From assembly GCF_003334335.1 (NCBI RefSeq), contig NZ_QOWQ01000137.1: DNA of 933 nucleotides; one strand, written 5' to 3'. The notes beneath the pieces were generated by a model, which saw only the letters and a list, made by a program, of their open reading frames with translations, had not been told where the DNA came from and searched no databases. Of the stretch, positions 1 through 933 are shown piece by piece; positions within the stretch are counted from its first letter, which is position 1, and each line of letters begins with the position of its first letter. Both the position numbers and the translations under genes were made by a program. This DNA is from Escherichia coli. GTDB taxonomy: Bacteria; Pseudomonadota; Gammaproteobacteria; Enterobacterales; Enterobacteriaceae.

Positions 1-933
1 AAAGTGATCCGCACAGAACGGGTAAAAAAAGCCTGTACAAAATGTGACTGCATCGTTGAAGCACCGGCACCATCCCGTCCGATAGAGCGTGGTATCGCGG
101 GCCCGGGGTTACTTGCCCGCGTGTTAACGGGAAAATACTGCGAACATCTGCCACTGTATCGTCAGAGTGAAATCTTTGCCCGCCAGGGTGTCGAACTGAG
201 CCGTGCCTTACTCTCCAACTGGGTTGATGCGTGCTGCCAGTTAATGACTCCGCTGAATGATGCCCTGTACAGTTATGTGATGAACACCCGCAAGGTTCAC
301 ACTGATGACACACCAGTAAAAGTACTGGCACCGGGCAGGAAGAAGGCGAAAACAGGATATATCTGGACGTATGTCCGGGATGACCGAAATGCCGGTTCGC
401 CAGAACCTCCGGCGGTCTGGTTCGCCTACTCACCGGACCATCAGGGTAAACATCCGGAGCAACACCTTCGTCCCTTCCGGGGTATCCTGCAGGCAGATGC
501 GTTCGCAGGTTACGATCGGCTGTTCAGTGCCGAACGTAAAAGCGGCGCGTTGACGGAAGCAGGATGCTGGGCTCATGCACGGCGCAAAATCCACGATGTA
601 TATATCAGTACCAAAAGCGCGACGGCGGAAGAAGCACTGAAACTAATCGGTGAACTGTACGCCATTGAGCACGAAATACGCGGGTTGCCGGTGTCTGAAC
701 GCCTGGCGGTCAGGCAAATGCAGAGTAAACCGCTACTGACTTCCCTGTATAAGCTGATGCAGGAGAAAGAACACACGTTATCGAAAAAATGCCGTCTGAG
801 AGATGCGTTCCGGTATATCAGGAAGCACTGGATTGCGTTGTGCAACTTCTGTGATGACGGTCTGGCGGAGGCGGACAATAACACAGCGGAAAGAGCGCTT
901 CGTGCAGTCTGTCTCGGAAAGAAAAATTACGTG
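1..933 (+). CDS. tnpC: IS66-family transposase (ORF3/TnpC), internal fragment; both the N-terminus and C-terminus lie outside the window
   Basis: Seen in sequence: frame 1 is open across all 311 codons with no stop. Translation begins KVIRTERVKKACTKCDCIVEAPAPSRPIERGIAGPGLLARVLTGKYCEHLPLYRQSEIFARQGVELSRALLSNWV and continues through ...HTDDTPVKVLAPGRKKAKTGYIWTYVRDDRNAGSPEPPAVWFAYSPDHQGKHPEQHLRPFRGILQADAFAGYDRLF...EAGCWAHARRKIHDV...IGELYAIEHEIRG...LAEADNNTAERALRAVCLGKKNY. Established knowledge: these blocks (LPLYRQ HTH, YVRDDR, VWFAYSPDxxGxHP, ILQADAYxGY, CWAHARRK, GELYAIEAEIRG, IDNNxAEN-ALR, GRKNW) are the conserved signature of IS66-family transposases such as those of IS66 and ISEc8. No start codon with a ribosome-binding site and no stop codon is present, so the gene is truncated by the window on both sides. 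The exact IS name is not determinable without a database search. Confidence 0.93.
34..51 (+). other. C-terminal half of the IS66 transposase zinc-ribbon motif (C-x2-C-x-C)
   Basis: Seen in sequence: codons 12-17 encode C-T-K-C-D-C (tgt aca aaa tgt gac tgc). Established knowledge: IS66-family transposases carry an N-proximal zinc-finger domain built from paired CxxC motifs; the first pair would lie upstream of the window. Confidence 0.6.
91..225 (+). other. Helix-turn-helix DNA-binding region of the IS66 transposase (contains the LPLYRQ motif)
   Basis: Seen in sequence: codons 31-75 encode GIAGPGLLARVLTGKYCEHLPLYRQSEIFARQGVELSRALLSNWV. Established knowledge: the 'HLPLYRQ...G(V/I)ELSR(A/S)TL' block is the conserved HTH region of IS66-family transposases. 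Domain boundaries are approximate. Confidence 0.7.
298..900 (+). other. DDE-type catalytic core of the IS66 transposase, including the CWAH motif
   Basis: Seen in sequence: D102/D103 (nt 304-309, HTDDTPV), D166 (nt 496-498, ILQADAFAGY), CWAH at codons 189-192 (nt 565-576, followed by ARRK), and E297 (nt 889-891, within ADNNTAERALR at nt 874-894). All are in frame and intact. Established knowledge: IS66-family transposases have a DDE-like core with a conserved CwAH-rR motif between the second D and the E. Which of D102/D103 is catalytic cannot be decided by eye. Confidence 0.7.

Follow-up and report, generated by a model that had tools for sequence, protein, structure and literature searches.

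Insertion sequences of the IS66 family are organized as three ORFs, tnpA-tnpB-tnpC, and duplicate 8 bp of their target, according to one published account (PMC6778807). The same account regards tnpC as the gene for the presumed active transposase, and as the best conserved of the three IS66 genes family-wide (PMC6778807). In addition, motifs binding the beta sliding clamp have been reported in IS66 TnpB and/or TnpC (PMC3971601).

The DNA analyzed here, referred to below as the window, is a stretch of 933 bases with a G+C content of 53%. It is 100% or 99.9% identical at the nucleotide level to the gene for the ISEc43 TnpC of Escherichia coli (e.g., WP_077501991.1 / WP_032221816.1), with which it has in common the reading frame, the element organization and the neighborhood of iha, and we found no difference from it in the window. 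More distant systems are the E. coli and Klebsiella IS66 elements ISEc47, ISEc23, IS682 and ISKox1, with 78 to 86% TnpC identity, followed by ISKpn24, ISEc22, ISEc8 and ISCro1, with 55 to 65%. The paralogous TnpC proteins are colinear with the window, read in the same frame and carry the same motifs (CxxC, DDxPV, YVRDDR, LQADA, AHARRK and DNNxAE). The closest paralogue group differs from the window at 14 to 16% of the nucleotides, mainly at third codon positions, and, unlike the window, the paralogous elements lack the antisense ORF.

A second known phenomenon is relevant here. Shadow ORFs, that is, ORFs in alternate frames inside bacterial genes, are a known artefact of gene finding. As in the present case, they are long off-frame stretches free of stop codons, whose length is explained by the codon and amino acid usage of the real gene. 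Overall, our data indicate, with a probability of about 97%, that the window is an internal slice of the tnpC gene of an ISEc43-type IS66 element and that the two ORFs listed for it are statistical by-products of this gene.

A single reading frame is open across the window

Six-frame translation of the window revealed no stop codon among the 311 codons of frame +1, compared to 17 stops in frame +2, 18 in frame +3 and 8, 8 and 4 in the three frames of the minus strand. None of 5000 mononucleotide shuffles of the window contained a fully open frame. Frame +1 harbors in-frame ATG codons, but both a stop codon and the true start of the gene are absent within the window. The program that listed the ORFs omits, by its own description, those running off the end of the source sequence. 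Since frame +1 continues past both ends of the window, a lister working from start to stop is blind to it. Only two ORFs of at least 60 aa were listed, as follows.

371..553, plus strand: shadow ORF of 60 aa with an ATG start, in frame +2 ((371-1) mod 3 = 1), not considered a gene
573..884, minus strand: shadow ORF of 103 aa with a GTG start, not considered a gene

Both are fully contained in the frame +1 reading frame. The original prediction had stated that the true frame has no unit running from an ATG to a stop, and that the listed ORFs overlap the gene completely, one in frame +2 and the other on the antisense strand. The count of zero stops with internal ATG codons agrees with the first statement and the coordinates of the two ORFs with the second. 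When the frames were recomputed allowing open ends, frame +1 was the sole frame open from one end of the window to the other.

The open frame encodes an internal part of the IS66 transposase TnpC

Frame +1 matched the NCBIfam equivalog model NF033517 (transpos_IS66) with an E value of 1.5e-103 and 346.8 bits, for a curated cut-off of 180, as well as the Pfam model DDE_Tnp_IS66 (PF03050) with an E value of 3.3e-92, the match covering residues 30 to 310 of the window and positions 1 to 273 of the 284 of the model. The full-length TnpC matched PF03050 with an E value of 2e-94. The translations of frame +1 and of the two listed ORFs were all searched against profiles, and while frame +1 returned the IS66 models, neither listed ORF fell into a conserved family. 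The opposite pattern, with frame +1 lacking an IS66 match and a listed ORF belonging to a conserved family, was looked for and not seen.

In a megablast search of complete E. coli genomes, all 933 bases were found, at 100% identity, in NZ_CP145707.1 (E. coli S1-CAM-02-A), where they lie under an annotated tnpC. For copies with 99.9% identity, the annotation reads either tnpC or "IS66-like element ISEc43 family transposase". Related sequences were present in 3045 of the 5426 complete E. coli genomes, at a median of 2 and a maximum of 45 places, and 330 megablast records reached an identity of at least 99%.

The identical reference copy (locus L001) allowed the window to be placed exactly within the gene. 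The window corresponds to L001 4001-4933, inside the CDS at 3503-5116. The offset of 498 bases from the start of this CDS is a multiple of 3, and therefore frame +1 of the window is the annotated frame. Codon 167 begins at the first base of the window, which encodes residues 167 to 477 of the 537-aa TnpC, comprising the tail of the zinc finger and nearly all of the catalytic DDE_Tnp_IS66 domain; in the identical copy, the start of tnpC lies 498 bases upstream of the window and its stop 183 bases downstream. The Pfam domain order of the full-length identical copy is LZ_Tnp_IS66 (residues 60 to 130), zf-IS66 (138 to 182), DDE_Tnp_IS66 (196 to 486) and DDE_Tnp_IS66_C (494 to 530). The features of the window that derive from this reading are listed below, with the residues of the putative active site.

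1..933, plus strand: internal fragment of tnpC, IS66 family (ISEc43-like), codons 167 to 477 of 537, based on identity, profiles and the open frame
1..48, plus strand: C-terminal end of zf-IS66 (PF13005), including the second CxxC (CTKC, bases 34-45), E value of 8.7e-12 for full-length TnpC
88..930, plus strand: DDE_Tnp_IS66 catalytic domain (PF03050), window residues 30-310
304..309, plus strand: DD in TDDTPV, window residues 102-103, TnpC D268/D269, column invariant in 11 sequences
496..498, plus strand: Asp in LQADA, window residue 166, TnpC D332, kept in 10 of 11 sequences
565..588, plus strand: CWAHARRK, window residues 189-196, of which the AHARRK part is invariant
889..891, plus strand: Glu in DNNxAE, window residue 297, TnpC E463, with D-N-N-x-A-E in 11 of 11 sequences

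The gene is thus one that is already known and correctly annotated in RefSeq, and nothing in our data contradicts this reading.

Conserved residues suggest a probable DDE mechanism

The motifs were derived from an alignment of 11 IS66 transposases reaching down to 53% identity. The cysteines of the zinc-finger CxxC showed no variation across these 11 sequences, and DDxPV and YVRDDR were further invariant motifs. CWAHARRK is, we presume, the hallmark that has been given for the IS66 family as CwAH-rR (ISfinder; Gourbeyre et al. 2010).

From their conservation, D268/D269 would be candidates for the first catalytic aspartate, D332 a candidate for the second and E463 a candidate for the catalytic glutamate. 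The frame +1 protein is probably a DDE (RNase H-like) transposase that uses the conserved Asp/Asp/Glu residues. When solved structures were searched by sequence, no relative of TnpC was among them. By analogy with what is generally known of DDE transposases, TnpC would bind the terminal inverted repeats of the element, and would then cleave and transfer its 3' ends at a metal-binding Asp/Asp/Glu site in an RNase H-like fold. Staggered cuts 8 bp apart at insertion would leave a target-site duplication such as the one observed around the reference copy (see below).

At the position aligned to window residue 166, the IS66 transposase of Klebsiella pneumoniae p1155IKP_1 (L014) harbors an asparagine (LQANAY). 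This copy may be inactive.

Coding statistics and substitution patterns favor frame +1

We then compared the composition of the frames. The G+C content at codon positions 1/2/3 was 0.588/0.450/0.559 in frame +1, and 0.589/0.437/0.542 in the neighboring genes outside the window. Both listed ORFs were atypical by this measure, with 0.50/0.57/0.73 for the frame +2 ORF and 0.38/0.53/0.61 for the antisense ORF. Codon usage was scored by log-odds with a training set of 1,183 codons taken only from outside the window (tnpA, tnpB, the flanks of tnpC, and iha). Frame +1 reached +25.1 bits and the five remaining frames -79.5 to -118.6 bits, a clear separation for what is a codon-level model with a small training set rather than a true hexamer model. 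The comparison of codon-position G+C and coding scores that had been proposed with the original prediction, with codons in place of hexamers, was hence in favor of frame +1.

The pattern of substitutions was in the same direction. Compared to five paralogues with about 85% identity (ISEc47, ISEc23, IS682 and two unnamed tnpC copies), the window differed at 34 to 38 first, 18 to 23 second and 77 to 92 third positions of the frame +1 codons. Furthermore, frame +1 was free of stops in 10 of 10 intact relatives, down to a protein identity of 53% in a copy from a Burkholderia plasmid. Judging from these patterns, frame +1 is evidently the frame on which selection acts. With profiles, coding statistics and relatives all in agreement, the central claim of the original prediction, namely, that the ORF track misses the real gene and displays shadow ORFs in its place, is upheld.

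The divergence from the ISEc23/ISEc47/IS682 paralogues (L003 to L007) was very uneven along the window. The region 573-884, located between the second Asp and the Glu, was about 24 to 25% divergent and the region 371-553 about 15%, while the other 438 bases (1-370, 554-572 and 885-933) were only about 7 to 10% divergent. An insertion domain that evolves rapidly, or earlier recombination among IS66 relatives, could account for this unevenness.

The reference copy is a complete insertion sequence

Outside the window, the identical reference copy in L001 displays the gene order tnpA (2700-3125), tnpB (3122-3472) and tnpC (3503-5116). The genes are enclosed by terminal inverted repeats of 24 to 25 nt at L001 2615-2638 and 5123-5146, which are 84% complementary and begin with GTAAGCG, and directly outside the repeats lie the two copies of a perfect 8-bp target-site duplication, CAAAATGG, at L001 2607-2614 and 5147-5154. 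The reference copy is a complete insertion sequence of 2,532 bp. The presence of inverted repeats beginning with GTAAGCG together with the 8-bp duplication CAAAATGG indicates a clean transposition event and thus no relic. Moreover, the intact duplication and the many near-identical copies suggest, although indirectly, that this element may have been mobile recently.

Whether the same holds for the copy from which the window itself was taken is a separate matter. The source sequence consists of 933 bases only, and partial or frameshifted annotations are frequent among the IS66 copies of E. coli, several of them adjoining the reference copy. The source copy could accordingly be a truncated or decayed IS66 remnant, that is, a pseudogene, which would be compatible with the main reading of the sequence. 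However, the 933 bases contain no stop and match an intact copy at 100% identity, and that copy has its three ORFs, two inverted repeats and a target-site duplication. We thus regard a remnant as unlikely and infer that the copy from which the window comes, of which 933 bases are visible, is complete.

The two listed ORFs are expected by-products of tnpC

To put the length of the listed ORFs in perspective, we generated 5000 synonymous-codon shuffles that altered neither the protein sequence of TnpC nor the codon usage. The longest minus-strand ORF in these shuffles had a mean length of 105 aa and reached at least 103 aa in 48% of them. Similarly, the longest off-frame ORF on the plus strand had a mean length of 65 aa and reached at least 60 aa in 60% of the shuffles. 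In 91%, there were at least two ORFs with a length of 60 aa or more. The listed ORFs are hence within the lengths expected from synonymous shuffling (P of about 0.5 to 0.9).

Neither the frame +2 ORF nor the antisense ORF had a Pfam match, even at an E value of up to 10. Among NCBIfam models, the 60-aa ORF gave one chance-level match to a kinase family (E value of 0.066, 13 bits for a cut-off of 208) and the antisense ORF gave none. Rfam returned no match in the window at an E value of up to 1, and a search for promoter-like and terminator-like sites in the window, made with an antisense transcript in mind, found none. The exact sequences of the two ORFs were absent from a collection of about 15 billion predicted proteins, and gene callers therefore evidently skip them. 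The profiles, the shuffles, the codon scores and the comparison with 17 related copies all spoke against a real overlapping gene at either ORF. From this sequence evidence, both ORFs are most plausibly by-products of the amino acid and codon composition of the transposase, and no genes.

The frame +2 ORF nevertheless required a closer look at the relatives. Its segment was without internal stop in 10 of 10 relatives (L004, L006, L007 and L010 to L016), whose TnpC identity ranges from 86% to 53% and which include a Burkholderia copy, and its terminal stop was found at the matching place in 8 of the 10. Such a pattern would fit a genuine overlapping gene at 371..553, or a product read from tnpC in an alternative frame, that is conserved across the IS66 family. 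However, given the frame +1 protein of each lineage, synonymous resampling produced an open frame +2 segment with a P of 0.60 to 1.00, in a test of limited power, and with a P of 0.58 to 0.79 in the close set. In this part of TnpC, few codons carry the T at position 2 that a stop in frame +2 needs. In 4 of the 10 relatives, the ATG was lost through a synonymous change, from TAT to TAC, in a Tyr codon of frame +1.

The frame +2 translation also evolves differently from what a functional product would lead one to expect. It was 69 to 74% identical where frame +1 was 85 to 90% identical, and 30 to 40% identical where frame +1 was 60 to 66% identical, at equal nucleotide identity, and its rate of divergence is about twice that of frame +1. 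Substitutions within 371-553 numbered 16 to 18 at position 3 of frame +1, which is position 2 of frame +2, but only 2 to 3 at position 2 of frame +1. This accumulation at the second codon position of frame +2 is therefore the opposite of what is expected of a translated frame. Over the same interval, the codon score was -9.8 bits for the frame +2 ORF and +6.6 bits for frame +1, and the atypical codon-position G+C, as well as the lack of a Pfam match, of a promoter-like site and of an exact protein in the public collection, likewise speaks against a gene. A conserved frame +2 ORF was thus rejected on the grounds of an openness forced by frame +1, a start that is not conserved and a faster-evolving translation. 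Taken together, we consider a family-wide overlapping gene highly improbable, and there is just as slim a prospect that the segment gives rise to a short overlapping or frameshift-accessed product within the TnpC catalytic domain.

There is next to no probability that the antisense ORF at 573..884 (103 aa) represents a recently arisen overlapping gene restricted to the lineage of ISEc43-type elements: although it is the longest of the listed ORFs and a 97%-identical copy (L009) has no stop in it, a minus-strand ORF of at least 103 aa has a P of 0.48 in synonymous shuffles of TnpC; 4 internal stops interrupt it in each of the paralogues with about 85% identity (ISEc47, ISEc23, IS682 and related copies) and 1 to 6 in 10 of 10 diverged relatives (protein identity of 86% or less); GCA replaces its GTG start not only in ISEc23 and IS682 but also in the 97%-identical copy; its codon score over 573..884 is -26.6 bits versus +12.8 for frame +1; and it lacks a profile match, a promoter-like site and an exact protein in the public collection. 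Across the copies compared, the antisense ORF is thus not conserved.

What remains is the preferred reading, a slice of tnpC with two shadow ORFs, and its value is one of quality control. An ORF track that runs from start to stop can hide the sole real gene of a short window; taken at face value, it would have yielded two false "hypothetical small proteins", so that the finding averts a spurious novel call. Both the blindness to open-ended frames and the shadow ORFs are an already known and well understood artefact, tnpC is among the commonest mobile-element genes of E. coli, and no new biology follows.

Surroundings of the reference element

Within L001 (1-8933), the element is nested among truncated or frameshifted fragments of IS66-family and other transposases. 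Immediately downstream, it is adjoined by iha, encoding a bifunctional siderophore receptor/adhesin. The same neighborhood recurs in L002 (1-8933). Its presence in at least two strains that are unrelated suggests a pathogenicity island as the setting.
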